IMG/VR virus record: IMGVR_UViG_3300033562_001863
Coordinates: 1 to 59,489 of that record
Reading direction: 5' to 3' (one strand)
Length of the DNA: 59,489 nt
Origin: a virus
Lineage: Duplodnaviria; Caudoviricetes
The notes under the pieces: model-generated
The model's database searches: none
Seen by the model: the letters and a program-made list of their open reading frames with translations, nothing else
What the model was told of the DNA's origin: nothing
Made by a program: the position numbers and the translations under genes
Shown here: one piece after another, positions 2,719 through 41,532 of the stretch
How the letters are laid out: every line of letters starts with the position of its first letter
Position numbering within the stretch: the stretch's first letter is position 1

Positions 2719-2731
2719 AAAGGAGAAACAA

Positions 2732-9723: not shown

Positions 9724-9728
9724 AAGTA

Positions 9729-9757
9729 TTGACAAAGAAAATAGTTTATGATATAAT
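9729..9757 (+). promoter_or_regulatory. sigma70-type promoter
   Basis: TTGACA-N17-TATAAT. Confidence 0.8.
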
Positions 9758-9771
9758 AGAAGGTATAGAAA

Positions 9772-10764: not shown

Positions 10765-11000
10765 AAAAGCCAACAGAACTGCTTATTGAAAACTGTAAAA
10801 TAATAATAAGCAATAAAAACTGTTATCATTGCGGTATTAGATGCACTCGTGATAGTTGCCCGCTTGTCTTCGAAATAAAAAGTATGGACTGTGCTTCTAC
10901 TTTTGGACATTTCAATGATGAAAACAATAAAAAGCCATTAGTTTGGTTCAAAAAATGGTTAAAAAAATACACATCAATACAATATGAGTTTGACTTCTAA
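10761..11000 (+). CDS. Cys-rich small protein ending QYEFDF
   Basis: Paralog of 2431 and 9463. Confidence 0.75.
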   Translation: MKKPTELLIENCKIIISNKNCYHCGIRCTRDSCPLVFEIKSMDCASTFGHFNDENNKKPLVWFKKWLKKYTSIQYEFDF

Positions 11001-11006
11001 AATCAC

Positions 11007-11035
11007 TTTACAAAGTTTTTAGTTAATGGTATGAT
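11007..11035 (+). promoter_or_regulatory. sigma70-type promoter
   Basis: TTTACA-N17-TATGAT. Confidence 0.65.
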
Positions 11036-11053
11036 TATAGCAAGGAGCAAAAT

Positions 11054-12166
11054 GTGCTTAAAATACAAGAGTTCATATCTTCTCATAATGACTGGGAAGC
11101 GCTTCTTAAAGAAAAACCATATGCTATATCTACTACCAAAAAAAATGGTCTTGTTCTATTCTCATATAATATGATAGACAGTGACCCAAAGAATGAAATA
11201 GTAAAAGAAGCAAGAGGGCTTATTCTTGAGGCCATTACTTTCAAGGCTGTTTGTGTTCCTTTCTTTCGATTCTACAATCATACAGAATCATACTGCTCTC
11301 CAATAGATTGGAACACTGCCAAAGTACAAGAGAAAATAGATGGAAGTCTAGAAAAACTTTACTTCTATAATGACAAATGGAATGTAGCAACGAATAATAC
11401 GATAGATGCTTTCGAGTGTAATCTTAATGTTGGTAAATATAACTTCTTTGGCGATTTGTTTGTAGCAGCTATGAGAATGTCTGCTCCTAAAGAGTTCCAG
11501 GATGATTTTTTCCATAACACGGGAGAAGTTCTTAACAAAAACTACACCTATATTTTTGAACTTGTATCGTTGTTTAATAGGATAGTAGTTCCATATGATA
11601 TCCCCGCTATCTATCACATTGGAACAAGAGATAATGTCTCACTCCAAGAAATAAATATTGACCTTGGAGTACAGAAGCCAAAAGAATATAAGTTTTCAAC
11701 AAAAGAAGATTGTTATGCTATGGCTGAAAAACTTCCATTTAGCGAAGAAGGATATGTGGTAGTTGATGCTGAGTGGAATAGGGTGAAAGTAAAGTCCCCT
11801 GCTTATTTGGCGGTTCATCACTTGAGGTCAAACGATGGTTCTGTGTCCCCAAAGAGAGCAGTAGAACTTATTATGACAGGAGAGGATATAGAGTTCCTTT
11901 CTTATTACAAAGAATATACTGAATACTTTGAAGAAATGCGAGCAAAAATAAACAACTATAAAAATGAGCTATTACTTATACAAAAACATTTAAGCGATGC
12001 TTATTATACCAATCGTAAGGAGCTTGCTTTGTGGGCTAAGACAACCATAAACAGTGATTTTGCTTTTGGGTTTGAGGATGGAAAATATAGCAATCCAGAT
12101 GATTACATGAATATTCTTTTCAAATCAAAAGGTTCTGATAGAATAGTGTCCATTCTGGAAGAATGA
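11054..12166 (+). CDS. T4 Rnl1 (RnlA)-like RNA ligase
   Basis: EARGLIL, PFFRFYN, QEKIDGS, FEL, EGYVV, RVKVK motifs. Confidence 0.85.
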   Translation: MLKIQEFISSHNDWEALLKEKPYAISTTKKNGLVLFSYNMIDSDPKNEIVKEARGLILEAITFKAVCVPFFRFYNHTESYCSPIDWNTAKVQEKIDGSLEKLYFYNDKWNVATNNTIDAFECNLNVGKYNFFGDLFVAAMRMSAPKEFQDDFFHNTGEVLNKNYTYIFELVSLFNRIVVPYDIPAIYHIGTRDNVSLQEINIDLGVQKPKEYKFSTKEDCYAMAEKLPFSEEGYVVVDAEWNRVKVKSPAYLAVHHLRSNDGSVSPKRAVELIMTGEDIEFLSYYKEYTEYFEEMRAKINNYKNELLLIQKHLSDAYYTNRKELALWAKTTINSDFAFGFEDGKYSNPDDYMNILFKSKGSDRIVSILEE

Positions 12167-12167
12167 A

Positions 12168-12437
12168 ATGAAACTAAAAACAGGGGACAAAGTAAAATGT
12201 ATTAACGGGTATCTGGGTGGTTGGGGAGGTATGACTGGAACCGTAGTAGATTTAAAAAAAGCAGCCGATTATTCTGATGACCACATACCAATAGATTTTG
12301 GCAAAAAAAGCCCCAAAGGCGAAGGCCATAAACTTGACGGCCTAATAAAAACTGAAACTGGTTGGTGGTTTCCCATCTGCCGCTGTGACTATTATTTACA
12401 AAAAGTGTCTGTAAAGCAGTATGAGTTTAGTTTCTAA
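12168..12437 (+). CDS. small SH3-like protein (GDKV..GW.G..G.V..DF..GH.L..TGWWFP) ending QYEFSF
   Basis: Paralog of 17566, 40306, 41253. Confidence 0.75.
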   Translation: MKLKTGDKVKCINGYLGGWGGMTGTVVDLKKAADYSDDHIPIDFGKKSPKGEGHKLDGLIKTETGWWFPICRCDYYLQKVSVKQYEFSF

Positions 12438-12448
12438 TAGGAGGTTCT

Positions 12449-12922
12449 ATGAAAGATTCCGTTTCTCTTATAGAAAGATTACCCTCCAATATAGTAGAAG
12501 CTTTGAAAAAGGCAGAGCAAAGTAAAAAATGGCATAAAGAAGGTTGTGTTTATAACCATATTTTAGAAGTAGTAGATAGAGCCATGCTGACTGGAGACAA
12601 TGATTTAGTGGTAGCAGCTATATTCCACGATCTTGGCAAACTTGATACCGAGACAAGAACCATAGTAAATGGGGAAGAAGCCATCCATCACTTCGGGCAC
12701 GAGTTTATTTCTCTCCGCTATTTAAGGGAACATTATTCTCTTTACGAAGATTTGATTATAGATTATAATAAAGTAGAGGAAATAGTTCTCAATCATATGA
12801 GAGCGCACTTATATGAAAATGGCACGTTGTCAAAGCCTAAAAAAAGAGAAACTTTCGAGAACCTGAAATATTTTAATGATATAATAGCGTTCTCCAAATG
12901 CGACGATGGAGGAAAACAATAA
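12449..12922 (+). CDS. HD-domain phosphohydrolase
   Basis: WHxEG..H, AAIFHDLGK, HFGHE, NHM. Confidence 0.8.
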   Translation: MKDSVSLIERLPSNIVEALKKAEQSKKWHKEGCVYNHILEVVDRAMLTGDNDLVVAAIFHDLGKLDTETRTIVNGEEAIHHFGHEFISLRYLREHYSLYEDLIIDYNKVEEIVLNHMRAHLYENGTLSKPKKRETFENLKYFNDIIAFSKCDDGGKQ

Positions 12923-13395
12923 TGAGTAAGCTGCTGATGTTATACGGTGTGGCAGGTTCTGGTAAATCAACTTGGGCTAAAAAGTTCTGTCTTGAAAATA
13001 AATATATGAGGATTTGTCCCGACGATATAAGGGAAGAAGTTGGCACTTCTATAAGTGATATGAGCAATGAATATATGGTTTGGATGATAGCGGAAGAACG
13101 ATTAACCCATTGTTTGGCTACCGATATTGATGTTGTTTTTGACGCTACCAATGTGAAGGCAAAAAACAGAAGAATGCCATTATTTATAGCAGGAGAGTTT
13201 GGAGCTGATGTGTCTTTTGCTATATTCTCTTGCGACAAAGAAGAAGCAAAAAGAAGAATACATAAAGATATAAAAGAAAAAGTAAATAGGTCAAATGTCC
13301 CAGACGATGTAGTTGATGCTATGTATAATTCTTATCTTGAAAATATAGAAGAAGCAAAAAAATATAAACACATAATAATAGAAAATGAAAAATGA
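12922..13395 (+). CDS. polynucleotide kinase-like P-loop protein (AAA_33)
   Basis: GVAGSGKST, DDIR, DATN..R, R..VP..V. Confidence 0.85.
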   Translation: MSKLLMLYGVAGSGKSTWAKKFCLENKYMRICPDDIREEVGTSISDMSNEYMVWMIAEERLTHCLATDIDVVFDATNVKAKNRRMPLFIAGEFGADVSFAIFSCDKEEAKRRIHKDIKEKVNRSNVPDDVVDAMYNSYLENIEEAKKYKHIIIENEK

Positions 13396-14359: not shown

Positions 14360-14791
14360 ATGAATAAAGAAATAGATGAACTATTTGATAAACTTTATAT
14401 TTATATTTATAAAAAATACTATAATACACCTTGGCCAAAGCCAGATTTCTTTAGTGAAAGAGAAGGTATCGGCATTTTTTTTGATAGGTTCAAAATGGTA
14501 GGTGGTAAAGAAATAAAAATAGATGGAATAAAGGCATTGTTAAAAGAAGATAAAATATTAAGAAAGTTAGCGTATAACACATTTTCATCAAATGCTTTTT
14601 ACGAAATAGAGAGGTGCCCAGCGAGAGATGGGTTCTTTTGTTCTTGTAATAAAATATTTGAAGTAAATAATGAAAGTCTATATTCTGGATTTGGCGGCTC
14701 TTCTTGCGATAGATACTTTAGACAAGCCGTAAGTAAAAAAGTTAAAGCTCTCAAAGCAAAAGATGTTGATCAGCTTGAGTTTGAGTTCTAA
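14360..14791 (+). CDS. hypothetical protein ending QLEFEF
   Basis: ORF; tail motif. Confidence 0.7.
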   Translation: MNKEIDELFDKLYIYIYKKYYNTPWPKPDFFSEREGIGIFFDRFKMVGGKEIKIDGIKALLKEDKILRKLAYNTFSSNAFYEIERCPARDGFFCSCNKIFEVNNESLYSGFGGSSCDRYFRQAVSKKVKALKAKDVDQLEFEF

Positions 14792-14810
14792 TAAGTTAGG
14801 GGATAACTTT

Positions 14811-15083
14811 ATGGCTAGTGATTTTTTTGTGGGTGGTAAAAAAGTAACAATGACGCTGGAAAGTTTCTCCAAGAACCCAGTTAGAAATGACTTACATATC
14901 CCAAAAAAATGTATAATGGAAATGATAGAAAAGTGTAGAAAAGAAGACTTTACAATTATTAAGGATTGCAGCAAATCTGGAAATGACTTTTGCAAGTATT
15001 TATATACCTTTGAATATAGTCCATATGTATGGCCGACAGAATGGTTTTTTGAAACAAAAAAACAGCTTGAGTTTGAGTTCTAA
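14811..15083 (+). CDS. small protein ending QLEFEF
   Basis: ATG 14811 after GGGG RBS. Confidence 0.7.
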   Translation: MASDFFVGGKKVTMTLESFSKNPVRNDLHIPKKCIMEMIEKCRKEDFTIIKDCSKSGNDFCKYLYTFEYSPYVWPTEWFFETKKQLEFEF

Positions 15084-15092
15084 CAAAACTCC

Positions 15093-15121
15093 TTTACAAA
15101 GTTTTTCAATCGTGTTATAAT
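15093..15121 (+). promoter_or_regulatory. sigma70-type promoter
   Basis: TTTACA-N17-TATAAT. Confidence 0.75.
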
Positions 15122-15370
15122 AATAGCACGAAGAAAATAAAATCCCTGAGTATATCAGGGCGTCAGTAGGAACGATACACTTGCCGTTTTGAGTGTTCTC
15201 ATTAGTTAAACAATGCTCCCGCAAAACACTAAAGCGGATATCGTCAGTGTGATAACAGATTTAGCTTATAGTAAAGCATTCCGGTATAGCACCGGAAAAG
15301 AAGTTGGGTCGAACCGCATTCTGTTAAATGTTTCCTCGTATGAGGAACAAACTTTTTCTAGGGGGCAAAT

Positions 15371-15964
15371 ATGGATTTCAAGAAGATGATGGGCGCAGAT
15401 TTCGGCAAGGTAGATGGCAAGTACGGTCTCAGGCTCACGATGCTCGGTATCGGAGTTCTAACCAAGAACGGACAGATTTCTGTCTATGACAAGACGGCCA
15501 AGACCATTACGACCGTTCCCGACGATCTCTCCATTGGAGAGCTTCCCTTCTTCGCTTTCCCTGCTGACAAGATCGAAGTAGGTGATCTTGTCATCCACAA
15601 CGGGCTTATCAAGTCCATCACAGAGATAGATGAAAGTGGCGTAATCGCCATTGACATCCTCGCCCAGCGTGAGGAAATCATCCTCGTTTCCAAGAACTTG
15701 TTCGGCTTCAAGGGCATTTCCAAGGTCATCAGCTTGTTCCCCGCAGATGGCTTCGGCTCCGGTGGTTCTCCCTTCGGTGGAGATCTTACCAAGAACCCGA
15801 TGCTGATGATGGCGCTCATGGGCGACGGCAATCTCTTCGGTGGAGATGGCGACGACAGTCTCATGACAATGCTCATGCTTTCCCAGATGGGTGGTGTAGG
15901 CGGTGGCTTTGGAGACATTGCTAAGAACCCGATGCTGATGATGATGCTTATGAAGGGTCTTTAA
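15371..15964 (+). CDS. hypothetical protein with Met/Gly-rich C-terminal repeats (NPMLMM)
   Basis: Strong C/G-ending codon bias suggests high expression. Confidence 0.75.
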   Translation: MDFKKMMGADFGKVDGKYGLRLTMLGIGVLTKNGQISVYDKTAKTITTVPDDLSIGELPFFAFPADKIEVGDLVIHNGLIKSITEIDESGVIAIDILAQREEIILVSKNLFGFKGISKVISLFPADGFGSGGSPFGGDLTKNPMLMMALMGDGNLFGGDGDDSLMTMLMLSQMGGVGGGFGDIAKNPMLMMMLMKGL

Positions 15965-15974
15965 GGAGGCCGCA

Positions 15975-16394
15975 ATGAGCACAATAAACATCAAAGGCGT
16001 TCGCTTTGAGAAAGGAGCTGGCGCTCGCATCATAAGCGAGGAACAGCTCCGCGAAAGGTCGAGCCTCGCTTCAAGCTCCAAATGGCTTGAAATGATACGC
16101 AAGTACGGTGGTAAGAAACTCAAGGTGTATGGCTACGACCCCGACACCGACAGGGTATGGATGTCCGAAGACCACAGCGATACCTACAAATGGAAGTCGT
16201 TTATGTTGGACGATGTTTTCAAGGCAAATCCTGACAGAGAAAGTGTTCACAAAGAACTACATCGCCCAGTAGTTCAAAATGTTGCCGCCGTAAAACTTGA
16301 TCCGACCACCAACAAGGTGCTGAAGAAAAATAACCGCAGCAAGATTGTCAAGTTCATGCTCCTCATGAGCTTGATGAACAACGAAAAGAAGTAG
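15975..16394 (+). CDS. hypothetical protein
   Basis: AGGAGG RBS; followed by terminator. Confidence 0.7.
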   Translation: MSTINIKGVRFEKGAGARIISEEQLRERSSLASSSKWLEMIRKYGGKKLKVYGYDPDTDRVWMSEDHSDTYKWKSFMLDDVFKANPDRESVHKELHRPVVQNVAAVKLDPTTNKVLKKNNRSKIVKFMLLMSLMNNEKK

Positions 16395-16401
16395 ATTATA
16401 A

Positions 16402-16428
16402 GCGTAGTCCTTCGGGACTACGTTTTTT
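16402..16428 (+). terminator. Rho-independent terminator
   Basis: GCGTAGTCC-TTCG-GGACTACG-T6. Confidence 0.75.
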
Positions 16429-16431
16429 CAA

Positions 16432-16502
16432 GTTCCCTTCGTCTATCGGTAGGACAACACATTCTCAGTGTGTAAAGATTGGTTCGACTCCAGTAGGGAA
16501 TA
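16432..16502 (+). tRNA. tRNA-Glu(CTC) copy 1
   Basis: Cloverleaf; anticodon arm ACACA-TTCTCAG-TGTGT. Confidence 0.85.
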
Positions 16503-16520: not shown

Positions 16521-17381
16521 ATGAAACTATTTTGTAATAACTGTGATGGAGTTTACGATAGTTTGGATGTTAGATTTACGAAATCCTGTGACAACAACTG
16601 TGATTTTTGTATAGAAAAACAAGGTATAGATAATCTTGGTATGGCAGAGCCATCTACTCTTATAGAAAGCACAAAAAAAGCAGGAATAAAAAGTGTTCTT
16701 ATTCTGGGTGGAGAACCCTTACTTTTTATTGAAAATGTTTTAGAATATATTAAAGGTATTAGAGATTTTGCTGATACCATATACCTTACAACTTCCCTAC
16801 CTATAACTATAATGAACAATAGAAAATCTGTTGATGAAATAATAAATCTTCTCGATGGAATAAATATTTCTATACAGAGTAGCGATTGGGAAGAGAATAA
16901 CAAAATACTAAAAGCCAGTAGTGAGTACAACAGAATAGAACTTTTAAAAAATCTAAATAAAAAACATTCAGATAAAATAAGGGTTTCTATCAACTTGGTG
17001 CGAGGTGGCATTGACAGCAAAGAAAAACTTTTGAAAACCATTTCAAAGCTTGAATCTTGTGGCTGTAAAAATATCAAGATAAATGAGCTTCAAAATAGTC
17101 CTTCTTTATATGTTTCATTTGAAGACATTATGAAAATAAAAATGAAATCTCCTTACTCTCACGGTTGTTCTACAAAGATAAAAATAGACGGAGTGACTGC
17201 TGGGCTTATTCTAAAAAGAAGTTGTTTCATAGAAGAAGTAAGTAGAGAAGCCACCGTAAGTGATTTTATAAAAGCACTTGTTAAGCATTATGTACATAAC
17301 AAGAAAAATCGTTTTTCTGTTATGTATGAAAACGGAATGGTGACAAAAGGATGGGCAACAAAATGTCAAACAAAAAACTGA
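16521..17381 (+). CDS. radical SAM enzyme
   Basis: CDNNCDFC (CxxxCxxC), GGEP. Confidence 0.9.
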   Translation: MKLFCNNCDGVYDSLDVRFTKSCDNNCDFCIEKQGIDNLGMAEPSTLIESTKKAGIKSVLILGGEPLLFIENVLEYIKGIRDFADTIYLTTSLPITIMNNRKSVDEIINLLDGINISIQSSDWEENNKILKASSEYNRIELLKNLNKKHSDKIRVSINLVRGGIDSKEKLLKTISKLESCGCKNIKINELQNSPSLYVSFEDIMKIKMKSPYSHGCSTKIKIDGVTAGLILKRSCFIEEVSREATVSDFIKALVKHYVHNKKNRFSVMYENGMVTKGWATKCQTKN

Positions 17382-17565: not shown

Positions 17566-17862
17566 ATGATACCAAAGATTGGCACTAAAGCAGTATGTAT
17601 AAAAGATTATCACAATGGTGGATGGCTTAACTATACTGGAACTGTGGTAGCTATCAGGGGAAGTTTTACTAAAAATGTTGGTGTTGATTTTGGCGTCAGG
17701 TCAAGGAGTGGTTACGGACATAATCTACTTTGGAACGGAGACTCTGGCGGAGATTTCTTTAAGATAAAAAATGAAACTGGATGGTGGTTTCCTGCTGATA
17801 GATTTAATGAATATTTTAGATTATTAAAAGAACCAAAAGAGCAGTTTGAGTTTGTTTTCTAA
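17566..17862 (+). CDS. small SH3-like protein ending QFEFVF
   Basis: GGW..GTVV..VGVDF..GH.L..TGWWFP family. Confidence 0.75.
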   Translation: MIPKIGTKAVCIKDYHNGGWLNYTGTVVAIRGSFTKNVGVDFGVRSRSGYGHNLLWNGDSGGDFFKIKNETGWWFPADRFNEYFRLLKEPKEQFEFVF

Positions 17863-17868
17863 AAATGC

Positions 17869-19878: not shown

Positions 19879-20523
19879 ATGGGTCATTATGGTAGTGATT
19901 ATGAAGACAGCTATACATCAAAATCTGCTTGGACTCTTAGAGAAGGTTGTACTCCTTCTCCTGTTATACTAATGAATGCTAGTCAAGACAAACTTCATAT
20001 TGACCTTCCTGGGAGGAAATATATTAAGCACGAAAGATTAAGGAATGAGGGTTTTGCAGTTCATCAAAAACCAAATAGTCCAAGAGATACCATTGAAAAT
20101 AATGCAAAACCAAATATAGGTATTACAGAAGATTTAGAAAGTTTTGGGCACATACGAACATGGGAGCATTTTGGAGATTTAAGCCAAGATGATTATCCCC
20201 TTCTCGATTCTCTTGTCAGTAAGATTGGTTGGGTAGTTGGTAGTGATAAGCAAGGTAGAACTCTTTATCATTATTCAGCAGAACAATGTAAACAGCTTTT
20301 GCGTGAAGCTGGCTTTTTATGTGTTAAAATAAAAGATTGTCCTTTTTGTGGAAGTAAATCTAAAGTAGTTGAGTTACAAGATTGTGGAAGTAATAATCTA
20401 ACATATGTAGTTCAGTGTGAGAATTGCAAAGCAGAAACCACTGAGTTTGCTAATCCAGATATGGCTGTTCTAGCTTGGAACAATAGAATGACAGAAGAAA
20501 ATAAGTTAAAACAAAATACTTGA
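19879..20523 (+). CDS. protein with C-terminal Lar-like zinc finger
   Basis: CPFCGS...C..C...AWNNR. Confidence 0.6.
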   Translation: MGHYGSDYEDSYTSKSAWTLREGCTPSPVILMNASQDKLHIDLPGRKYIKHERLRNEGFAVHQKPNSPRDTIENNAKPNIGITEDLESFGHIRTWEHFGDLSQDDYPLLDSLVSKIGWVVGSDKQGRTLYHYSAEQCKQLLREAGFLCVKIKDCPFCGSKSKVVELQDCGSNNLTYVVQCENCKAETTEFANPDMAVLAWNNRMTEENKLKQNT

Positions 20524-24891: not shown

Positions 24892-25215
24892 ATGGTTCCA
24901 CTTAGCAAAAGAGAAGAAGCAAGAAAAAATATATTGAATTGTGAGTGCCCAGAACCAGCAAAAAGGGTAAAGTTTCATGCAGAAACTGGCAATATATATT
25001 CTATATTTTCAAGTAACTTTTGGCCAAATAAAGTAGAAGAAGGACCTATAGCATATGTTGATAGAATAGCAAAATCTTTTTTATGGCCTGACTGCTTAAG
25101 TGATAAAAATCTTGTTTCTGCTATTCATAGGTATGATAGCTTAGAAGTAGCCGCATACTATATGATAAAGTATAGCAAAAAAGCTATGCAGTTTGAGTTT
25201 AACTTCAGCTCTTAA
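24892..25215 (+). CDS. hypothetical protein ending QFEFNFSS; paralog of 26219-26509
   Basis: RIAKxFLWPDCLxDKxLVSA shared. Confidence 0.7.
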   Translation: MVPLSKREEARKNILNCECPEPAKRVKFHAETGNIYSIFSSNFWPNKVEEGPIAYVDRIAKSFLWPDCLSDKNLVSAIHRYDSLEVAAYYMIKYSKKAMQFEFNFSS

Positions 25216-25280: not shown

Positions 25281-25616
25281 GTGTATAAAGTTGGAGATAC
25301 TATAAAAATACGAAGTAAAGAGTATTTCCGGAATCTACCTGATTACGACGAAAGCGGATATGGGGTTCCTATTGGTGCTTATTTTACCGATATAATGTTT
25401 ATTTTTTGTGGTAGAAAGTTTATTATCGAATCGGAAACAAAGGCCAATATAATACTTCGTACTGGAGACCCTAAGATATATGGTGATTTAGACAAAATAT
25501 ATGCAGTAAGAAATATTGGTAAATACGATAGCAACGACGAATATGGAATAAGCAATTTTAAATTTTCAGAGTATATGTTTGAAAAACTAGCACAGCAGTT
25601 TGAGTTTAGCTTCTAA
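25281..25616 (+). CDS. small SH3-like protein ending QFEFSF
   Basis: GTG 25281 after GGAGG; YKVGDTIKIR. Confidence 0.7.
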   Translation: MYKVGDTIKIRSKEYFRNLPDYDESGYGVPIGAYFTDIMFIFCGRKFIIESETKANIILRTGDPKIYGDLDKIYAVRNIGKYDSNDEYGISNFKFSEYMFEKLAQQFEFSF

Positions 25617-25780: not shown

Positions 25781-26143
25781 ATGTTTTGTAATAAAAAGTT
25801 GCGTGAAGCAATAAAAGTATTAAACGAGGAAGTAGAAAGAGCAAAGGCATATTGCGAAAAGGTAGAAAGAGAAAAGGCCAAACAGCCAGATGTTTTTGAA
25901 GTCCATTTTGATATGGAATATTTTTTCGACAGTTCTCCAGCTGATGTCAGAACTATCAGTAGGATTTTCTGCTATAGAAACAGAGAAAGAGCTTTGGCGG
26001 CAGTTAGTGCTCTACAAACAGGAAGCAAAATAAGCTTGCCTTCTATTATAGAAGAAGATACTGTGATAGAGGGTTTCTTTGAACATTATATTGATCCTAA
26101 AAATATAGTATTCAAAGATGTCTGGATAGAAATAATACCTTGA
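25781..26143 (+). CDS. hypothetical protein
   Basis: GAGGGG RBS. Confidence 0.6.
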   Translation: MFCNKKLREAIKVLNEEVERAKAYCEKVEREKAKQPDVFEVHFDMEYFFDSSPADVRTISRIFCYRNRERALAAVSALQTGSKISLPSIIEEDTVIEGFFEHYIDPKNIVFKDVWIEIIP

Positions 26144-26150
26144 AAAGTTC

Positions 26151-26179
26151 TTGACGAAGTTTTGACTTCGTGGTATAAT
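26151..26179 (+). promoter_or_regulatory. promoter with palindromic spacer (region ~26144-26206 duplicated at ~26799-26861)
   Basis: TTGACGAAGTtttgACTTCGTggTATAAT. Confidence 0.8.
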
Positions 26180-26218
26180 AATAGCACGGAAGAAAAAGTT
26201 AGAAAGGGGATATATTTT

Positions 26219-26509
26219 ATGGTTCCACTAAGGTATAGAGAAAATATAAGAAAATATATCATAGGAAACAAAAGTCCAAAGTCATTTGACGTAGTAAACT
26301 TTTATCATAGCCCTTATAACATTACTTCTTTTTTTGAAAAAAACTTTAGCAAGCGTGATAAAAATGAAAATATTACAGAATATATCAATAGGATTGCTAA
26401 GAATTTTTTATGGCCCGATTGTTTGAATGACAAAGAACTGGTTTCTGCTTTAAATTGTTTTGGATGTTTAGAAATAGCCAATTTCTATATGTTAAAATAC
26501 AATAAATAG
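26219..26509 (+). CDS. paralog of 24892-25215 lacking the QxEFxF tail
   Basis: ATG 26219 (MVPL...). Confidence 0.65.
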   Translation: MVPLRYRENIRKYIIGNKSPKSFDVVNFYHSPYNITSFFEKNFSKRDKNENITEYINRIAKNFLWPDCLNDKELVSALNCFGCLEIANFYMLKYNK

Positions 26510-26523
26510 CACGGGGGAAGAAA

Positions 26524-26796
26524 ATGAAAAATGAAAACATTTTTGGCCTTGATGTAGTTTCTTTTAATGTAGAAGATGCTCTTCCTCCAAAGAGGTCGTA
26601 TGTAATAGCAAAACTTGTAGACTCTGTTTCAAAGAAAGCAAAGTTGAGAAGTTCTTACTATGATAATGGTGTTTTCTGGGATAGCGAGAGCAGCCATGCT
26701 TCTGGTATAGAACATAGTTCAAGCGAATGTGACGATGAAGAAACATTGATATATAACTGGGAAGTAGTTTCTTGGTTTAAAGCTGATTTTTCTTAG
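26524..26796 (+). CDS. hypothetical protein (DUF551-like)
   Basis: VEDALP...V..W pattern. Confidence 0.5.
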   Translation: MKNENIFGLDVVSFNVEDALPPKRSYVIAKLVDSVSKKAKLRSSYYDNGVFWDSESSHASGIEHSSSECDDEETLIYNWEVVSWFKADFS

Positions 26797-26805
26797 TAAA
26801 AGTTC

Positions 26806-26834
26806 TTGACGAAGTTTTGACTTCGTGGTATAAT
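26806..26834 (+). promoter_or_regulatory. promoter with palindromic spacer heading the ncRNA/tRNA-Glu array
   Basis: TTGACG-N17-TATAAT. Confidence 0.8.
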
Positions 26835-27168
26835 AATAGCACGGAAGAAAAAGTTAGAAAGTTCCATGAAAATGTTGAGTTTTCTGACAGCGGCAAGGTA
26901 ATGTGGCTCACTCCGCATAGAGCGGTGGGTAAGACCTTGGAATAAGTCGTATAGACGACAACCACATAAAATGATTTTGGCTTTAGCAGTGTTCACCTTC
27001 CTTTTTTACGGTGGTAGGTTTGTGAACACTTAAATATAAATGAAAAACCGTTCCTATCTATGATGACCTGTTCCAACTTCATAGATGTATTAAAGTACAG
27101 GGGCAACTTTGGATGTTTTGACCTTTCTTCCTTAGTGGTAGTTTAATGGATTAGGTTATTGATTTTAG

Positions 27169-27313
27169 ATGCCCGTATAGACAAGCTTTTAGTTGTTGTA
27201 TTTTAAGTTGGGTGCAAGCCCACTTTAGCATGATAGCTACAAAGCCCTATATTCTAAAATCACTTATGCCTCTTAAGCCATGTTGCAACATGATTGCTTA
27301 GGCAAAATGGGCA
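27169..27313 (+). ncRNA. candidate structured RNA (ends pair)
   Basis: ATGCCCGT/ATGGGCAT closing stem just before tRNA-Glu copy 2. Confidence 0.45.
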
Positions 27314-27321
27314 TTTTATTT

Positions 27322-27392
27322 GTTCCCTTCGTCTATCGGTAGGACAGTTTGTTCTCAGCAAACAAAGATTGGTTCGACTCCAGTAGGGAATA
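27322..27392 (+). tRNA. tRNA-Glu(CTC) copy 2
   Basis: GTTTG-TTCTCAG-CAAAC. Confidence 0.85.
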
Positions 27393-27400
27393 TAGTTCAT

Positions 27401-27473
27401 TCTTCGGTAGCTCAGTTGGCAGAGCGTCTGGCTGTTAACCAGAATGTCGCAGGTTCAAGTCCTGCCCGGAGAG
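27401..27473 (+). tRNA. tRNA-Asn(GTT)
   Basis: Canonical cloverleaf. Confidence 0.9.
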
Positions 27474-27478
27474 CTAAA

Positions 27479-27727
27479 GTTTCTATCTAGTGTTTCTGTT
27501 CCATACAGCCAAAGTAGATCGACGTTTATGAGTAGGGGTAAGGAGTTATTGCGCCTTATCTTGAAAATAAGAATGGATGAAATGGTGTCGAGTTCAGGCA
27601 CAAAGGGAAACTCTTCTCTTGACTACTAAGAAGAGTGCGGCAAAAAGATTGAATGGAATGTTGGCAAACGGTGAAAGCTTATTGTCGATGTTTCAAACAA
27701 AACTTAAACGCAGGTAGGTAGTCAAAC
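27479..27727 (+). ncRNA. candidate structured RNA (ends pair)
   Basis: GTTT-CTATCTA / TAGGTAG..AAAC closing helix between tRNAs. Confidence 0.4.
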
Positions 27728-27729
27728 AA

Positions 27730-27800
27730 GTTCCCTTCGTCTATCGGTAGGACGCTCCCTTCTCAGGGGAGAAAGATTGGTTCGACTCCAGTAGGGAATA
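27730..27800 (+). tRNA. tRNA-Glu(CTC) copy 3
   Basis: CTCCC-TTCTCAG-GGGAG. Confidence 0.85.
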
Positions 27801-27807
27801 TATTTCT

Positions 27808-28151
27808 TTGGTGGCTTATAGAAAGAGGTTTAGCTCAACGTGCTACTGGTGATGTTGTTAAAATATGAAAATGATTTTAATAATGTTGCTTAGTTGCTAG
27901 GGCAAAACTCATTAGCTCGGCTTTTATTTTATTTTCGCCGTCTTGCTTTATTGTATTGCGAGATTAAGTAACAGTAAGACCCTGACCATAGGGTGACATG
28001 GCTCGCTAGGTTTGCGATAAGAAACTCCCTTGTTTTTTCGTTTAACTTTTTCTCTTGGGTTAAAAAGAAAAAGTAAAATAGTTTTATGTGCGCTGTGTTG
28101 CATATATAAAACTACTTATAGCCAGCTTGCAAACACAGGGCTGGCTACCAA
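27808..28151 (+). ncRNA. candidate structured RNA (ends pair)
   Basis: TTGGTGGCT/GGCTACCAA 9-bp closing stem bounded by tRNA-Glu copies 3 and 4. Confidence 0.45.
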
Positions 28152-28222
28152 GTTCCCTTCGTCTATCGGTAGGACAACACGTTCTCAGCGTGTAAAGATT
28201 GGTTCGACTCCAGTAGGGAATA
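28152..28222 (+). tRNA. tRNA-Glu(CTC) copy 4
   Basis: ACACG-TTCTCAG-CGTGT. Confidence 0.85.
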
Positions 28223-28249
28223 TACTTTCTTTTTTTAAGGAGGGTTGCT

Positions 28250-28426
28250 ATGAGTAGTGGAGAAAAGGAATGGCTTAAAGAAAGAGAAGCTTACGAAAAA
28301 GAACTGTATGAAGATTTCGAATCGCAAAATGCAAATGGCCCTGCTTTCTTGAGCAATGGAGAGTTTGTTCAGTATCTAATGTCCCGAATGTATCATGAAG
28401 GGCTTCCTTCAAAAGAACCAATGTAA
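28250..28426 (+). CDS. 58-aa hypothetical protein
   Basis: AGGAGG RBS; MSSGEKEWLKERE...; not in ORF track. Confidence 0.55.
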   Translation: MSSGEKEWLKEREAYEKELYEDFESQNANGPAFLSNGEFVQYLMSRMYHEGLPSKEPM

Positions 28427-28432
28427 AAGTCC

Positions 28433-28461
28433 TTGACTAAGTTTTTTGTTCAGTGTATAAT
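28433..28461 (+). promoter_or_regulatory. sigma70-type promoter
   Basis: TTGACT-N17-TATAAT. Confidence 0.75.
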
Positions 28462-28475
28462 ATAAGTAAGAGAAA

Positions 28476-28547
28476 GCGTTATTAGCTCAACAGTAGAGCA
28501 TTTGGCTTTTAACCAAAGGGCCGCAGGAGCGTCACCTGCATGACGCA
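28476..28547 (+). tRNA. tRNA-Lys(TTT), non-canonical D/T loops
   Basis: TTTGG-CTTTTAA-CCAAA; T-loop AGCGTCA. Confidence 0.75.
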
Positions 28548-28827
28548 TGAAAGTTTGTTATGAGAAGCGTTGAGTATGCCAACAAATCATAGAGTGAGTA
28601 TATCTTGCTGCTCCCTAATAAGGAATGGAAAAGTTGAAAGCAACTACATTTAAGTGCTGCTCTTCTGTTGTATCATAATAGGCATCCTCAACTTGCTATC
28701 GAGAGGAGAGCTTTAAACTTGTGGTGGAGAATGAGAGTTAGCTCCTTGTTAAGTTTTGAAAAAAACTTGTCTTGGAACGCTTTTGTTTTTTATTCATTAG
28801 CTAAGCTCAGGCGTAGATAGCATTCAA

Positions 28828-28898
28828 GTTCCCTTCGTCTATCGGTAGGACAGTTTGTTCTCAGCAAACAAAGATTGGTTCGACTCCAGTAGGGAATA
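28828..28898 (+). tRNA. tRNA-Glu(CTC) copy 5
   Basis: GTTTG-TTCTCAG-CAAAC. Confidence 0.85.
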
Positions 28899-28899
28899 T

Positions 28900-29211
28900 A
28901 GGCGTACTGTGGCTCATTGCTCACAGGCAAACAGCATTGGCGTAGCGAAGAGCTATACCAAGTTGCGCAAGTAGGTTTTGGTTAAGGGCTAAAAGCTGGT
29001 TGGGAGTAGTACAACTCTTGGGGCTTTAAAACAACCAGTAAAGCAAACTGTATAAGTCCCTGATTACAAATATGGTTATGTGATACAGTTTATGGAGGTA
29101 CTCAATCCTCCCCACATTAAGCAAGGTAGAGACGTTTATTTTGTGTGGTGCCTGAATAACTATTGCTTCACTCTGGCTAGCTGGTAACAAACTATCCCAG
29201 CCAGTACGCCT
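28900..29211 (+). ncRNA. candidate ~310-nt structured RNA
   Basis: Perfect AGGCGTACTG/CAGTACGCCT terminal stem bounded by tRNA-Glu copies 5 and 6. Confidence 0.55.
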
Positions 29212-29216
29212 TTTAA

Positions 29217-29287
29217 GTTCCCTTCGTCTATCGGTAGGACGGTTTGTTCTCAGCAAACAAAGATTGGTTCGACTCCAGTAGGGAATA
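29217..29287 (+). tRNA. tRNA-Glu(CTC) copy 6
   Basis: GTTTG-TTCTCAG-CAAAC. Confidence 0.85.
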
Positions 29288-29472
29288 ATAAGCCATTGGC
29301 CGCCCATTATTATCAGGGCGTGAGCTATTGGTTTTGATACGTTTGCTCAATTGCGTATCGCTGTTAAAAGCCGGTTTAATGCTGTTTTATTCCGTGGGTA
29401 ACTGCGGGTAGAATGATGTTCTATTGGCCTATAACAGTTGGGCTGTGCTATTAGAAATAATGGCACATTTAT

Positions 29473-29543
29473 GCACCGTTAGAATAGAAGTAGTTCGCAG
29501 GGTTTTCAACCCTGACAGGCGGGGGCGGTACCCGCACGGTGTA
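29473..29543 (+). tRNA. tRNA-Glu(TTC), non-canonical loops
   Basis: CAGGG-TTTTCAA-CCCTG; T-loop GGCGGTA. Confidence 0.7.
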
Positions 29544-29602
29544 TTGAACTCTAATGGCCTAGAACATTTTTAATCACCATTATATCATTTGGAGGTTCGC
29601 AG

Positions 29603-29818
29603 ATGGTTCATTTTGACTTTGTAGTAACGGACGAAGAAGCAGAAACTATTTTTGACTGTATGAACCTGGAAATAGAAAAATGCGATGACGAAGTTGATGT
29701 GATGAGTAAAGAAGAAGCTGCGCCAAACATTCAGTGGTTTTCTGACAGGAAAGGTTTCATAGATAAGCTCAAAGAAAAAATGAGCAACTATGTAGTAGAA
29801 GAAAGGGCAGTTGGATAA
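29603..29818 (+). CDS. hypothetical protein, paralog of 19570-19854
   Basis: GGAGG RBS; shared N-terminus. Confidence 0.65.
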   Translation: MVHFDFVVTDEEAETIFDCMNLEIEKCDDEVDVMSKEEAAPNIQWFSDRKGFIDKLKEKMSNYVVEERAVG

Positions 29819-29829
29819 ACGTATAACAT

Positions 29830-29901
29830 TGCCTTTTAGTTCAGAGGTAGAATAATGGTCTTTGAAGCCATTTGTCGCTGGTTCGAATCCAGCAAAGGCA
29901 A
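29830..29901 (+). tRNA. tRNA-Gln(TTG)
   Basis: ATGGT-CTTTGAA-GCCAT. Confidence 0.85.
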
Positions 29902-29956
29902 AAGAAAAAATAAAACAGATATTCAAAAGAAGAATATCAGAAAGGAGTGTTGCCAT

Positions 29957-30481
29957 ATGATATATTTTAGTTCAGATTGGCACCTTGGCCACTCCAATAT
30001 AATAAAGTTCTGTGACCGTCCCTTCTCTTCAACAGGAGAAATGGATAAAGCTATTCTGGATAGATACTGCGAAACAGTAAAACCAGAAGATACATTTTAT
30101 TTTCTTGGTGACTTTTCTTGGTATAACTGGAAAAGAAACTATGAAATCTGGAGTTCTCTCCCTGGAACCAAATATTTTATAAAGGGAAACCATGACAAGG
30201 ATGTAGATGAGTTTATAGACACATCCACCATAAGCAACATATGGGTTGAAAAAAACCCAGTAACTCTTTGCCATTATCCTATGCTATCATGGGATAAAAG
30301 CCATTTCGGGGCAATCCAGTTATACGGCCACCATCACACATTGGATACGAATAGTATTTTTCCAGGCAAGAGAATAAATGTAGCTTGCGACAAATGGGAC
30401 TTCAGGCCAGTTTCTTGGGATACTATAAAGCGTGTAGCAGATAAACTTCCAAACAACTGGGACTATATAGAGGGAAGATAG
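29957..30481 (+). CDS. calcineurin-like phosphoesterase (phage type)
   Basis: SDWHLGH, LGD, GNHD, CHYP, GHHH; ATG 29957 after AGGAG. Confidence 0.9.
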   Translation: MIYFSSDWHLGHSNIIKFCDRPFSSTGEMDKAILDRYCETVKPEDTFYFLGDFSWYNWKRNYEIWSSLPGTKYFIKGNHDKDVDEFIDTSTISNIWVEKNPVTLCHYPMLSWDKSHFGAIQLYGHHHTLDTNSIFPGKRINVACDKWDFRPVSWDTIKRVADKLPNNWDYIEGR

Positions 30482-30483
30482 TT

Positions 30484-30696
30484 ATGGATTATTCTATCGG
30501 TGAAAAAGTAGAATGTATCACAGATTTACATCCCTATATAAATAAAGGTTCTATTGGAAGAGTAATAGTTGTTGGTAGTATTATGTCAAGTATGGAAGTA
30601 GTTTTTTTAGATGTTTTGAAAGGTAAACCCATAGATTGGATATACGCTATACACATTAAAAAAACTATTCCAAAGCAACTTGAGTTTTCTTTTTGA
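30484..30696 (+). CDS. small SH3-like protein ending QLEFSF
   Basis: YSIGEKV..G..G.V. Confidence 0.7.
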   Translation: MDYSIGEKVECITDLHPYINKGSIGRVIVVGSIMSSMEVVFLDVLKGKPIDWIYAIHIKKTIPKQLEFSF

Positions 30697-30708
30697 AAGG
30701 TAAATAGC

Positions 30709-31799: not shown

Positions 31800-31922
31800 A
31801 GAGGTATGGTGTAATGGAAAAATAGTGCATGAAGCCACCGTCAAAAGAACTAGGTTAGGTTTCAGCATTAAACACACCGAGGCTGGTCTTCGGAGTTTTG
31901 GGTTCGATTCCTGATATCTCTG
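31800..31922 (+). tRNA. tRNA-like RNA with ~45-nt hairpin inserted in D-loop; atypical anticodon loop
   Basis: AGAGGTA/TATCTCT acceptor, GTGT/ACAC D-stem, TTCGATT T-loop; loop GCTGGTC. Confidence 0.55.
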
Positions 31923-31930
31923 ATTTTCAT

Positions 31931-32004: not shown

Positions 32005-32069
32005 ACAGGTAAATGTGGATTAGTAGATGGTACCATCTGAAATCTAGGTTCGATTCCTAGGTACCTGTC
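32005..32069 (+). ncRNA. truncated tRNA-like element without anticodon loop
   Basis: ACAGGTA/TACCTGT stem; CTAGG-TTCGATT-CCTAG; palindromic AGATGGTACCATCT. Confidence 0.45.
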
Positions 32070-32599: not shown

Positions 32600-32673
32600 G
32601 GGCTTGTAGCTTATCTAGCAGAAGCACCTGATTTGCAATCAGGATATAGTCGGGGCAGCACCGATCAGGTCCA
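32600..32673 (+). tRNA. tRNA-Ala(TGC), non-canonical T-loop
   Basis: G3.U70; CCTGA-TTTGCAA-TCAGG; T-loop GGCAGCA. Confidence 0.75.
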
Positions 32674-32710: not shown

Positions 32711-32786
32711 CAGGGTGTATCTCAACAGTCTTCTAAACTGTAGCCGAGTAAATGGATCAATGCAGGTTCGATTCCTGTCTCCCTGA
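32711..32786 (+). tRNA. rearranged tRNA-like RNA, Arg(TCT)
   Basis: ACAGT-CTTCTAA-ACTGT enclosed by CTC/GAG; GG loop 3' of it; canonical T-arm. Confidence 0.55.
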
Positions 32787-35282: not shown

Positions 35283-35807
35283 ATGATTAAAGAAATATTT
35301 ATAAATACTATCAGGGGTGACATTTCCCTTAAAAAGGAACAAAGCAAAAAAGAAACTGGTAGTTTTGCGGAACTATTAGGTTTTCCAAGCGTTCAAAGTT
35401 TTTCTATAAAGCTCGGTAACACAATAGAAAGTTGTTTCAGGAACTATGTTTTATCAAAAGGTATTGTTTTATCTAAGGGTTCTTTGGGCGGGCATCAAAT
35501 AGATTTGCTCTTTGAGTATGAAGATACAAAGTATTATTTTGAAATAAAAAATAATGTAAATCTTGATACAGAAAAATCTATAGCTGTTGTAAAAAAAATA
35601 ACTGATATGTGGAAATACGCAGATATATCTGCTTGTCTTTCTTTTAGAAAAGCAACGAATGAAGAGTTCTCAAGGTTTTCAAAACCTATTTTACAACCAT
35701 ACATATATGGGTATAACGACTTCTTTGATATATTTGGAGATTATCTGCCGGAAGCAGATTTTAATGAAATAATAGAAGAAATACTAGCCGTTTTTGAAGG
35801 TTCCTGA
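35283..35807 (+). CDS. putative PD-(D/E)xK restriction endonuclease
   Basis: IDLLF...YFEIK..NLDTEK; coupled to MTase. Confidence 0.6.
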   Translation: MIKEIFINTIRGDISLKKEQSKKETGSFAELLGFPSVQSFSIKLGNTIESCFRNYVLSKGIVLSKGSLGGHQIDLLFEYEDTKYYFEIKNNVNLDTEKSIAVVKKITDMWKYADISACLSFRKATNEEFSRFSKPILQPYIYGYNDFFDIFGDYLPEADFNEIIEEILAVFEGS

Positions 35808-36607
35808 TGACAAATAAAGAAACTGTGTTACCATTATTTAGATGGAGTGGCGGAAAGAGAAGTGAGATTGATTTATTCAGGCAGTTCTATCCAGAAAACT
35901 TTTCTACTTATGTAGAACCTTTCTTTGGAGCTGGCGCTGTATTCTTTGATTTACAATTCGCAGGAAATAATATCATAAGCGATATCCACCCAGAAAGTAT
36001 TAACTATTTAAAGGAAATACAAAAAGGGAATGGAAGAAAAATATATGATATGCTTAAAGAAGCAAGAAATGAAGAAGATTATTATTATTATATAAGAGAT
36101 GACTTTGAAATAAAAGACGATACTGATTCTGCTTTCAGGTTTATTTATCTCAGGAAAACTTGCTACCGTGGAATGTTAAGGTATAATAAAAAAGGCGGGT
36201 TCAACATTCCTTTTGGCAGGAGTAAATCTTTTACTTTTGAAGAAATACTAGACCCTAAATACTTTGAACTTCTATCAAGAACAACAATCTTGAACGAAGA
36301 TTTTAGAACAGTCATGGCAAAAACAGAAAGTCCAGAAAGTTTTGTTTTTTTAGACCCTCCATACGATTCTGTCTTCACTGATTATGGTTACTGTACGTTT
36401 GGCAGAAAAGACCATGAAGATTTAGCTAACATATTTAAATCTACTAAAAGCAAGTGCCTACTTATAATAGGTGGAACCCCTCTTATACAGGAGTTGTACG
36501 AACCTTATATTATTGGTAGTTATAGTAAAAAATATGCCTTCAAGATACATAGCGGTCGAGTATCATCTGAAATAGACAAAGAGCATTTAGTAATAAAAAA
36601 CTATTGA
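35807..36607 (+). CDS. DNA adenine methyltransferase (D12/Dam class)
   Basis: WSGGK, EPFFGAGA, FLDPPY. Confidence 0.9.
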   Translation: MTNKETVLPLFRWSGGKRSEIDLFRQFYPENFSTYVEPFFGAGAVFFDLQFAGNNIISDIHPESINYLKEIQKGNGRKIYDMLKEARNEEDYYYYIRDDFEIKDDTDSAFRFIYLRKTCYRGMLRYNKKGGFNIPFGRSKSFTFEEILDPKYFELLSRTTILNEDFRTVMAKTESPESFVFLDPPYDSVFTDYGYCTFGRKDHEDLANIFKSTKSKCLLIIGGTPLIQELYEPYIIGSYSKKYAFKIHSGRVSSEIDKEHLVIKNY

Positions 36608-37756: not shown

Positions 37757-37803
37757 ATACAGATAGTGGTGAAAGCCATGCGGTTCGAACCCGCATTCTT
37801 CCG
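37718..37803 (+). tRNA. nested tRNA-Ser(TGA)-like RNA
   Basis: GGAAGAA/TTCTTCC-G; loop TTTGAAT; variable hairpin TGGT-GAAA-GCCA; TGCGG-TTCGAAC-CCGCA. Confidence 0.6.
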
Positions 37804-37847
37804 GTTGAAAGGCACCCAGGGTTCAAATCCCTGATGGCCCGTTTTTT

Positions 37848-40305: not shown

Positions 40306-40557
40306 GTGAAACTTTTTATAGGGCAGAAGGTTTTCTGTAATTTTGGCTCTTGGAAGAACCACACTGGTATTATAGCTGTAATTGTTGCCGATGAAGTCGG
40401 TATTGACTTTATTAAAGACCCTAGAACAAACCTGGGTCATAATCTAAGAGGGCACATAAACACTGATACTGGCTGGTGGTATCCAGGGTATATTTTTGAA
40501 GATAAAGAGTATTTCACGATTATTAAAGAAAATAAGCAACTTGAATTTGACTTCTAA
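40306..40557 (+). CDS. small SH3-like protein ending QLEFDF
   Basis: GH.L.G...TGWWYP family. Confidence 0.75.
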   Translation: MKLFIGQKVFCNFGSWKNHTGIIAVIVADEVGIDFIKDPRTNLGHNLRGHINTDTGWWYPGYIFEDKEYFTIIKENKQLEFDF

Positions 40558-40563
40558 AAGTTC

Positions 40564-40958: not shown

Positions 40959-41242
40959 TGAGTTTTAAAGTTGGAGATAAAGTATTAGTTAAAAAAAATG
41001 TATGGGACAAAAAAGAACTAAATAATAAAATAGGCAAAATAGTAAAAATGAGTTCAGATAAAAGAGAATGTATTATTGAATTTAGAGAAAGCATGAAATT
41101 CTGTCACGACGGATGTAGATATTATATTGATGGAGTAGCAGATATTGTAGGAAAAGATGGATATTGCTGGGGCTTTATTATTAGTGGAGGGAACGATATT
41201 ATTGAGTTAGTTGGAGACAAGCAACTTGAGTTTGCTTTCTAA
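40955..41242 (+). CDS. small SH3-like protein ending QLEFAF
   Basis: FKVGDKV...IEF..H.G..GK.GYCW. Confidence 0.75.
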   Translation: MMSFKVGDKVLVKKNVWDKKELNNKIGKIVKMSSDKRECIIEFRESMKFCHDGCRYYIDGVADIVGKDGYCWGFIISGGNDIIELVGDKQLEFAF

Positions 41243-41252
41243 GGATAAACTT

Positions 41253-41525
41253 ATGAGACCACTTAAAATTGGAGACAGAGTAGTTTGTATTAGAGATTAC
41301 GACAATGGCGGGTGGGCGGGATTAAGTGGAACTGTTGTTGCCATATATGAAAAACGTGATGATGTTGGGGTTGAGTTTGATAGACAATCTAATAAAGGAT
41401 TTGGCTATGGGCACGACCTTAATAAAAGAATTGAAAATGATAACGGTTGGTGGTTTCCTTATTTCGATATATATTATTATGTAAAAATAGTAGAAAAAAA
41501 TAAGCAACTTGAATTTGATTTTTAG
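41253..41525 (+). CDS. small SH3-like protein ending QLEFDF
   Basis: ATG 41253; GGW.G..GTVV..VGVEF..GH.L..GWWFP. Confidence 0.75.
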   Translation: MRPLKIGDRVVCIRDYDNGGWAGLSGTVVAIYEKRDDVGVEFDRQSNKGFGYGHDLNKRIENDNGWWFPYFDIYYYVKIVEKNKQLEFDF

Positions 41526-41532
41526 AAAATGC

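Follow-up and report, generated by a model that had tools for sequence, protein, structure and literature searches.

Within a 59,489-base IMG/VR virus record (IMGVR_UViG_3300033562_001863, referred to in its full length as the window), the plus-strand region spanning approximately positions 26806-29543 carries five genes for tRNA-Glu(CUC) interleaved with long non-coding spacers, and a sixth copy of the gene lies 10.9 kb upstream. The reading we favor, to which we give an even chance, is that the region is an early tRNA operon in which tRNA-Glu has been amplified and diversified in its anticodon stem, with the spacers being excised non-coding RNA of unproven function. The tail sheath gene encoded in the window indicates that the record is, as judged by gene content, a fragment of a large myophage, and the CheckV completeness estimate of only 25% makes a jumbo genome probable.

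The initial annotation had placed five 71-nt tRNA-Glu(CUC) genes at 27322, 27730, 28152, 28828 and 29217. All five were found at these sites by ARAGORN and Rfam, while the sixth copy had been overlooked. The copies are as follows.

27322-27392, plus strand: copy 1, anticodon stem GUUUG/CAAAC (ARAGORN, Rfam).
27730-27800, plus strand: copy 2, stem CUCCC/GGGAG, position 26 = G (ARAGORN, Rfam).
28152-28222, plus strand: copy 3, stem ACACG/CGUGU (ARAGORN, Rfam).
28828-28898, plus strand: copy 4, identical to copy 1 (ARAGORN, Rfam).
29217-29287, plus strand: copy 5, stem of copy 1, position 26 = G (ARAGORN, exact pattern).
16432-16502, plus strand: sixth copy, stem ACACA/UGUGU (ARAGORN, exact pattern).

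An exact tRNA-Glu pattern recovered all six copies in the window. In the Rfam scan at E≤5, four of the five array copies were listed under RF00005 at 44.7-48.6 bits against a gathering score of 29, and the five Glu copies listed over both scans scored 44.7-49.3 bits against the same threshold; the copy at 29217, absent from the cmscan list, was called by ARAGORN and is one base away from copy 1. The anticodon is CUC, and because 10 cellular tRNA-Glu genes found in metagenomes share a 21-nt block of the D arm without any difference, the tRNA is of Glu type. The sixth copy is flanked by a terminator-like hairpin (~16401-16431) on its 5′ side and by a radical-SAM open reading frame (ORF; 16521-17381) on its 3′ side, with no long non-coding spacer adjoining it.

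Across the six copies 60 of the 71 positions are identical, and every difference falls either at position 26 or in the anticodon stem, which occurs in four versions: GUUUG/CAAAC (three copies), CUCCC/GGGAG, ACACG/CGUGU and ACACA/UGUGU. The 7/4/5/5 cloverleaf of 21 pairs is kept throughout, with 126/126 cells (one pair in one copy) being paired. All five anticodon-stem pairs have changed on both sides (13 cells) and the remaining 16 of the 21 pairs are invariant, as are the anticodon loop, the D and T arms, the acceptor stem and the variable loop. The observed covariation score was reached by none of 500 shuffles. An invariant loop, arms and acceptor stem, combined with a stem that is changed on both sides and still paired, argue for tRNAs under selection; the copies look like working tRNAs under selection of their own, which would have been kept as tRNAs with one helix repeatedly recoded.

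Some need for this tRNA can be read from codon usage, since it has codons to read: the sheath gene contains 17 GAG vs. approximately 27 GAA codons and an 810-codon gene 6 GAG vs. approximately 52 GAA (GAA being hand-counted in both), yet demand alone hardly calls for six copies. Plain gene dosage for GAG decoding in late genes, with the stem differences being neutral compensatory drift or serving to avoid recombination and the spacers being filler or remnants, would find support in the share of GAG in the sheath gene (17 of ~44 Glu codons), in the ARAGORN result that no tRNA-Glu(UUC) is present in the window, in the gaps of ~160 to 600 nt that also separate the other tRNAs of the island, and in the fact that the stem changes cut the 71-nt identity into blocks of 24 and 28 nt. 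Neutral drift is, however, hard to reconcile with no change at 60 positions as opposed to up to four of five stem pairs changed, avoidance of recombination would be incomplete because copies 1 and 4 are fully identical, and the composition of the spacers, described below, is unlike that of coding DNA and goes against recently decayed genes. We hold this explanation to be unlikely.

The array itself is composed of the following parts in addition to the Glu copies, where z denotes a folding z-score (minimum free energy, MFE) relative to dinucleotide shuffles.

26798-26861, plus strand: promoter cassette and 5′ leader (TTGACG-17-TATAAT with a TG extension), an exact 64-nt duplicate of 26143-26206 (family D1, 100% identity).
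26862-27321, plus strand: spacer A, a non-coding leader of ~460 nt; no confined ORF, z −1.95 (for 26846-27321), no Rfam match.
27401-27474, plus strand: tRNA-Asn(GUU), 8 nt after Glu copy 1 (ARAGORN; Rfam 70.4 bits).
27475-27729, plus strand: spacer B, 255 nt, non-coding, between tRNA-Asn and Glu copy 2; z −2.39, no Rfam match.
27801-28151, plus strand: spacer C, 351 nt, non-coding, with Glu copies at both sides; z −3.41.
28250-28426, plus strand: a 58-codon ORF preceded by a strong ribosome-binding site (AAGGAGG); no PHROG match, no known family.
28425-28468, plus strand: second promoter (TTGACT-17-TATAAT) of the same promoter family (repeat and promoter search).
28476-28547, plus strand: tRNA-Lys(UUU) (ARAGORN; Rfam 58.2 bits).
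28548-28827, plus strand: spacer E, 280 nt, non-coding, between tRNA-Lys and Glu copy 4; z −1.82, no Rfam match.
28899-29216, plus strand: spacer F, 318 nt, non-coding, its ends joined in a perfect 10-bp helix; z −2.82 (MFE folds).
29288-29602, plus strand: spacer G, 315 nt, non-coding, with the highest G+C (0.44) and the best folding; z −3.95, noise-level Rfam matches only.

Both promoters that had been proposed, at 26806 and 28433, hold up: they are sigma-70-like, match 11 of 12 consensus positions each and are members of a near-consensus repeated family (D2, 17 copies, with the repeats spread over 14-42 kb) whose sites appear from their sequence to be early promoters. The tRNAs and spacers of the array all lie on one strand downstream of these strong promoters, and no terminator-like site was found in the spacers, the sole plus-strand match of the region falling within a tRNA. 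One strand, a shared promoter and no internal terminator, the features of a tRNA-punctuated polycistron, are thus all found here.

The tRNA-Asn and tRNA-Lys genes inside the region (27401-27474 and 28476-28547) had not been noticed before, and because of them the description of the spacers as Glu-punctuated holds at both ends for C and F alone, with tRNA-Asn forming one boundary of spacer B and tRNA-Lys one of spacer E. Spacer G has no closing tRNA and leads at its 3′ end into the ribosome-binding site that serves a 71-codon ORF (29603-29818). A CRISPR-type repeat-spacer array was ruled out, the repeats being 71-nt tRNA genes instead of 23-50 nt and the spacers being of unequal length (255-476 nt).

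Since repeats of this kind can arise in assembly, which the initial annotation had named as a possible refutation, the read evidence deserves attention. Sequencing run X1 contains 96% of the words sampled and is possibly the source of the record. Its unitigs cover 26000-30500 in eight perfect pieces, which have an even depth of 14-18 and break at the repeated promoters or within Glu copies. Every spacer unitig ends within a Glu copy, one unitig covers the whole of copy 2 (27366-27801), and three of the stems are unique and hence anchor the neighboring spacers. In run X2, which comes from a second study with a different habitat label, four matching pieces of 137-151 nt with 0-2 differences were present. 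The repeats are not phantom, although for the spacer order one must still rely on the original short-read assembly because the copies at 27322 and 28828 are identical. Repeats of 71 nt, two of them identical, and unitigs that break within them leave some room for collapsed or chimerically joined repeats and an array that is not as written; we consider this highly improbable.

With respect to coding potential, the region had been described as almost free of credible ORFs. For the spacers this is correct, as no ORF confined to a spacer, stop to stop, was found under translation table 11 or with TAG read as Q or TGA as W; longer open frames of the array region extend over tRNA genes, and 10 candidate ORFs in and around the array gave no PHROG match. 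It is not correct for the interval 28223-28475, which holds the credible 58-codon ORF together with the second promoter. The G+C of the spacers is 0.36-0.44 vs. ~0.30-0.35 in most coding kilobases, and the AT skew is zero or negative across 27-30 kb, reversed relative to coding DNA; both features argue against recently decayed genes. The spacers are also mutually unrelated, as originally stated, with no direct-repeat family linking them and a mean column identity of 43% in a MAFFT alignment of six spacers.

A search of the Rfam 15 families, among them GOLLD and ROOL, gave no spacer match at gathering thresholds, with the whole-window scan yielding tRNAs only, and in scans at E≤5 and E≤10 all spacer matches were far below the gathering scores. 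The Rfam scan of each spacer that had been proposed therefore returned no family up to E≤10. Outside the called tRNAs, no hidden tRNA-like T-loop was found on the plus strand of spacers A-G, and in a search for antisense targets of the spacers elsewhere in the window the 25 longest of 132 pairings were all A+T-rich and put down to chance.

The search for homologues, likewise proposed earlier, brought up no diverged relatives of the spacers. By blastn against 50,697 phage records only the tRNA-Asn was matched, and exact tRNA-Glu patterns had no match in viral contigs. The 21-nt D-arm block occurred at 10 loci in metagenome contigs, all of them single cellular tRNA-Glu genes (CUC or UUC) with no array; in genome contigs, 24-mer and 21-mer versions of the block gave 0 and 6 loci, respectively, again with no array. 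Searches anchored on three proteins (phosphoesterase, sheath and RNA ligase) led to relatives with 31-41% identity that lack Glu arrays. A scan with the promoter pattern hit two records with one site each, which was judged chance, and no RNA run was listed among the sequencing runs holding sequence of the window. Five of the six reference genomes holding the 21-nt D-arm block are Spirochaetales or Treponema metagenome-assembled genomes, which may serve as a weak hint on the host lineage.

Folding of the plus strand gave z-scores of −1.95 (A), −2.39 (B), −3.41 (C), −1.82 (E), −2.82 (F) and −3.95 (G), and of +1.87 for the interval 28223-28475, so that six of seven intervals fold better than their shuffles and 28223-28475 folds worse. 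Three coding controls of 315 nt had z-scores of −1.96, −0.94 and −0.47. On the minus strand the values were −2.84 (C), −1.97 (F) and −1.67 (G); the plus strand was better in all three spacers tested, with the complements being less stable by 14-29 kcal/mol. We interpret these calculations as a moderate, strand-specific structure signal that falls short of proof.

Several of the spacers had further been described as self-closing at their ends. This applies to spacer F, in which a perfect 10-bp helix (28900-28909/29202-29211) lies 2 and 5 nt from the flanking tRNAs and is retained by the MFE fold, whether the spacer is folded by itself or in context. The 2,771 nt contain three perfect inverted repeats of 10 nt, which by our own arithmetic is approximately the chance number, and the helix of spacer F is for this reason unusual for its placement rather than its existence. 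The end helices of C (27808/28151, 9 bp) and B (27484/27721, 7 bp) contain G-U pairs and are not used in the MFE folds, and those at 27169/27313 and 29292/29464 are internal instead of terminal. Only the terminal helix of spacer F is clearly beyond chance. Spacer F also seems complementary to the anticodon arms of two tRNAs, tRNA-Lys and tRNA-Glu, which was rejected as a finding because such pairing is expected between hairpins.

Run X1 also contains a variant contig of spacer C (27904-27998) at a depth of 2, with 16 substitutions and 2 deletions, and therefore a second, diverged strain coexists in this sample. In our own reading of this single low-depth variant, the small hairpin 27979-27983/27990-27994 stays paired via one double and two wobble-compatible changes. 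The motif TGGCTYAY is located close to where spacers A, C and F begin (26904, 27812 and 28910, plus strand) and, inverted, at the start of G (29288, minus strand). We place no reliance on it as a shared spacer motif: 4 of its 11 matches in the window lie in the 2.7 kb of the array and 6.3 would be expected window-wide, it was defined post hoc, and the predicted structures at the sites differ.

The initial annotation had read the array as a library of distinct, functional, self-closing RNAs in which the tRNA-Glu acts mainly as a processing signal and recombination repeat. Several findings speak for this reading, namely the single strand, the promoters, the non-coding nature of the spacers with their higher G+C and reversed AT skew, the folding of six of seven intervals, the strand preference in the three spacers tested and the perfect terminal helix of spacer F. 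Precedents exist as well: in the excerpt of a report on these RNAs, GOLLD and ROOL are placed close to the tRNA islands of phages, with tRNAs sometimes located in the GOLLD linker (10.1101/2024.12.08.627333), and T4 is described in part of another as making RNAC and RNAD, the function of which is unknown (PMC9697503). The library itself fared less well. The spacers match no Rfam family, no homologues were found and covariation support is hence lacking, of the five closing helices proposed only one is clearly non-random, the z-scores overlap that of a coding control, two spacers are bounded by tRNA-Asn and tRNA-Lys, and no long non-coding spacer adjoins the sixth Glu copy. Moreover, a mere cut site would need neither an invariant anticodon loop nor an invariant D arm. 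Taken together, we find such a library improbable. More doubtful still is a two-layer cassette system, in which selected stem-diversified isodecoders, at least one copy of which would survive any anticodon-arm nuclease, would be combined with tRNAs serving as RNase P/Z sites and recombination handles that release and shuffle unrelated, terminally closed anti-host RNAs.

Several known systems bear on the spacers. In tRNA punctuation, as in animal mitochondria and engineered tRNA-guide RNA arrays, tRNAs flank units that are cut apart by RNase P and RNase Z. The intervening units in those systems are known genes, whereas here they are spacers of unproven function, and the tRNA itself appears to be under diversifying selection of its own. 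RNAC and RNAD lie in the tRNA cluster of T4 and are released by tRNA processing. The present array shares with T4 that non-coding RNAs would be made by a T4-like myophage with tRNAs (PMC9697503, in part), and differs in that the spacers are larger (255-476 nt), more numerous and interleaved with one repeated tRNA, a distinction drawn without sequence comparison. Similarly, GOLLD and ROOL are, in the excerpt at hand, large non-coding RNAs that adjoin or are interrupted by phage tRNA genes (10.1101/2024.12.08.627333), but the spacers are shorter, have no Rfam match even at E≤10 and have no covariation-supported structure.

Under the operon reading, an uncultivated myophage would transcribe the whole region together as one early tRNA operon, one gene, tRNA-Glu(CUC), would have been amplified to six copies, and fully compensatory changes would have turned its 5-bp anticodon stem, along with position 26, into four versions with the rest held identical. 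RNA located between two tRNAs is cut out by RNase P and 3′ processing enzymes and, given a single strand, promoters and no terminator in the spacers, the RNA between the tRNAs would be excised. To release the spacers, RNase P would cut at the 5′ ends of the tRNAs and an RNase Z-type activity at their CCA-less 3′ ends, and spacer F with its paired termini, perhaps also C and G, may persist as stable RNAs. The stem-only diversification would most likely represent escape from, or bet-hedging against, nucleases of the host or of competitors that recognize and cut the anticodon arm, and would act together with the repair genes of the same window (RNA ligase, kinase and phosphoesterase), which are listed here.

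8452-9171, plus strand: metallophosphoesterase (PF00149, 9e-13).
9772-10764, plus strand: RNA ligase (Pfam/PHROG search of the cluster).
11054-12166, plus strand: RNA ligase, T4 Rnl1-like (same search).
12449-12922, plus strand: weak tRNA-nucleotidyltransferase-like ORF (same search).
12898-13395, plus strand: polynucleotide kinase (same search).
29957-30481: second phosphoesterase, directly behind the array.

Profile matches of the cluster (8452-13395) are PF09414 at 7e-27 and PF00149 at 9e-13, and its PHROG matches are phrog_968 (1e-77), phrog_562 (2e-37), phrog_505 (8e-22) and phrog_2244 (1e-5). T4 mends tRNA cut by anticodon nuclease with such repair enzymes.

The suggestion of an anti-nuclease role draws on phage tRNAs, described in excerpts of recent reports, that stand in for host tRNAs destroyed by defense nucleases. 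AriB of PARIS cuts in the anticodon stem between positions 40 and 41, and the tRNA-Lys of T5 escapes AriB via two mutations around the cut site (PMC12409363). P2-OLD cleaves both strands of the anticodon stem at a CNG motif; changes in the stem make a phage tRNA-Thr resistant, and the cut is beyond repair by phage ligases (PMC12445682). The tRNA-Tyr of T5 counters the retron PtuAB (PMC11555353). As far as these excerpts go, the Glu copies resemble such anti-defense tRNAs (T5 tRNA-Lys, tRNA-Thr and tRNA-Asn against PARIS AriB, tRNA-Thr against P2-OLD) in that it is the anticodon stem, where such nucleases cut, that varies and in that RNA-repair genes are present in the same genome. They are unlike them in that one isoacceptor, tRNA-Glu(CUC), is present in six copies with four stems and the rest identical, and in being known from sequence alone. 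The stem-only variation was seen in a comparison of the copies with each other. A full-text search, with subscription journals outside its coverage, found no published description of a phage array in which a single isoacceptor varies in the anticodon stem alone. Stem variants in such a set would be expected if a nuclease of this kind targets the host tRNA-Glu(CUC), and we regard escape from anticodon-arm nucleases as the purpose of the diversification with some reserve, slightly short of an even chance.

A number of points weigh against the operon reading with its anti-nuclease role. The anti-defense role is an analogy, and the diversification is incomplete, copies 1 and 4 being identical and copy 5 one base off. 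A C34 tRNA reads only GAG, and in both of the genes counted GAG is outnumbered by GAA. Identity elements of tRNA-Glu are located in the acceptor stem, in the augmented D helix and in the anticodon. The anticodon stem may be simply the least constrained helix of tRNA-Glu and, because of this, drift with gene conversion, or selection against recombination between copies, could give the same picture. As to the spacers, their structure signal (z −1.8 to −3.95) overlaps one of the three coding controls (−1.96), and against the long MFE helix of spacer C the variant from run X1 has, in our own reading, three compatible and four disruptive changes.

Other features of the window were noted in passing. 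ARAGORN called 22 tRNA genes in the window, all on the plus strand, to which Rfam adds two. These Rfam-only tRNAs, at 32600-32673 and 32711-32786, score 40.2 and 35.6 bits and have a T or variable arm that is atypical by eye. In gaps of the tRNA island, T-loop-like motifs with flanking acceptor-like complementarity (~31800-31925, 32005-32068, 37780-37845 and 40183; repeat D18) were called by neither ARAGORN nor Rfam and may be degenerate, interrupted or unusual tRNA-like elements. Around the sixth Glu copy, the segment 15149-16520 consists of a promoter, a 220-nt untranslated leader and ORFs at 15371-15964 and 15975-16394, followed by the hairpin, the tRNA-Glu and the radical-SAM ORF; with a G+C of 0.46 over 15001-16000, it looks like an imported module.

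Many of the small early ORFs end in recurring C-terminal words (Q-L-E-F-E/D-F, stop) directly before a copy of the early promoter. Such stop-plus-promoter junctions were found at 14759-14793, 15052-15085, 17831-17864, 25177-25206 and 25584-25613, and further at 30673-30699, 40525-40560, 41211-41245 and 41494-41528 (families D6, D8, D10 and D11 across all sites), and a repeated junction of this kind could mediate shuffling of small gene cassettes. The window also encodes two proteins that carry a Lar restriction-alleviation domain, as well as a Dam-type N6-adenine methyltransferase and a protein with an HD_4 domain (7891-8424, 19879-20523, 35807-36607 and 2657-3289); these point to further anti-restriction or host-takeover functions.

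The spacers of the array are candidate new phage non-coding RNAs on thermodynamic hints only. Phage tRNAs have recently been recognized as countermeasures to tRNA-cutting immune systems, with the known cases involving one resistant copy per isoacceptor, and here six copies differ only in the stem that some such nucleases read. If the operon reading with its anti-nuclease role is true, the array would represent a natural experiment on nuclease recognition and would point to a yet-undescribed defense that targets tRNA-Glu(CUC).

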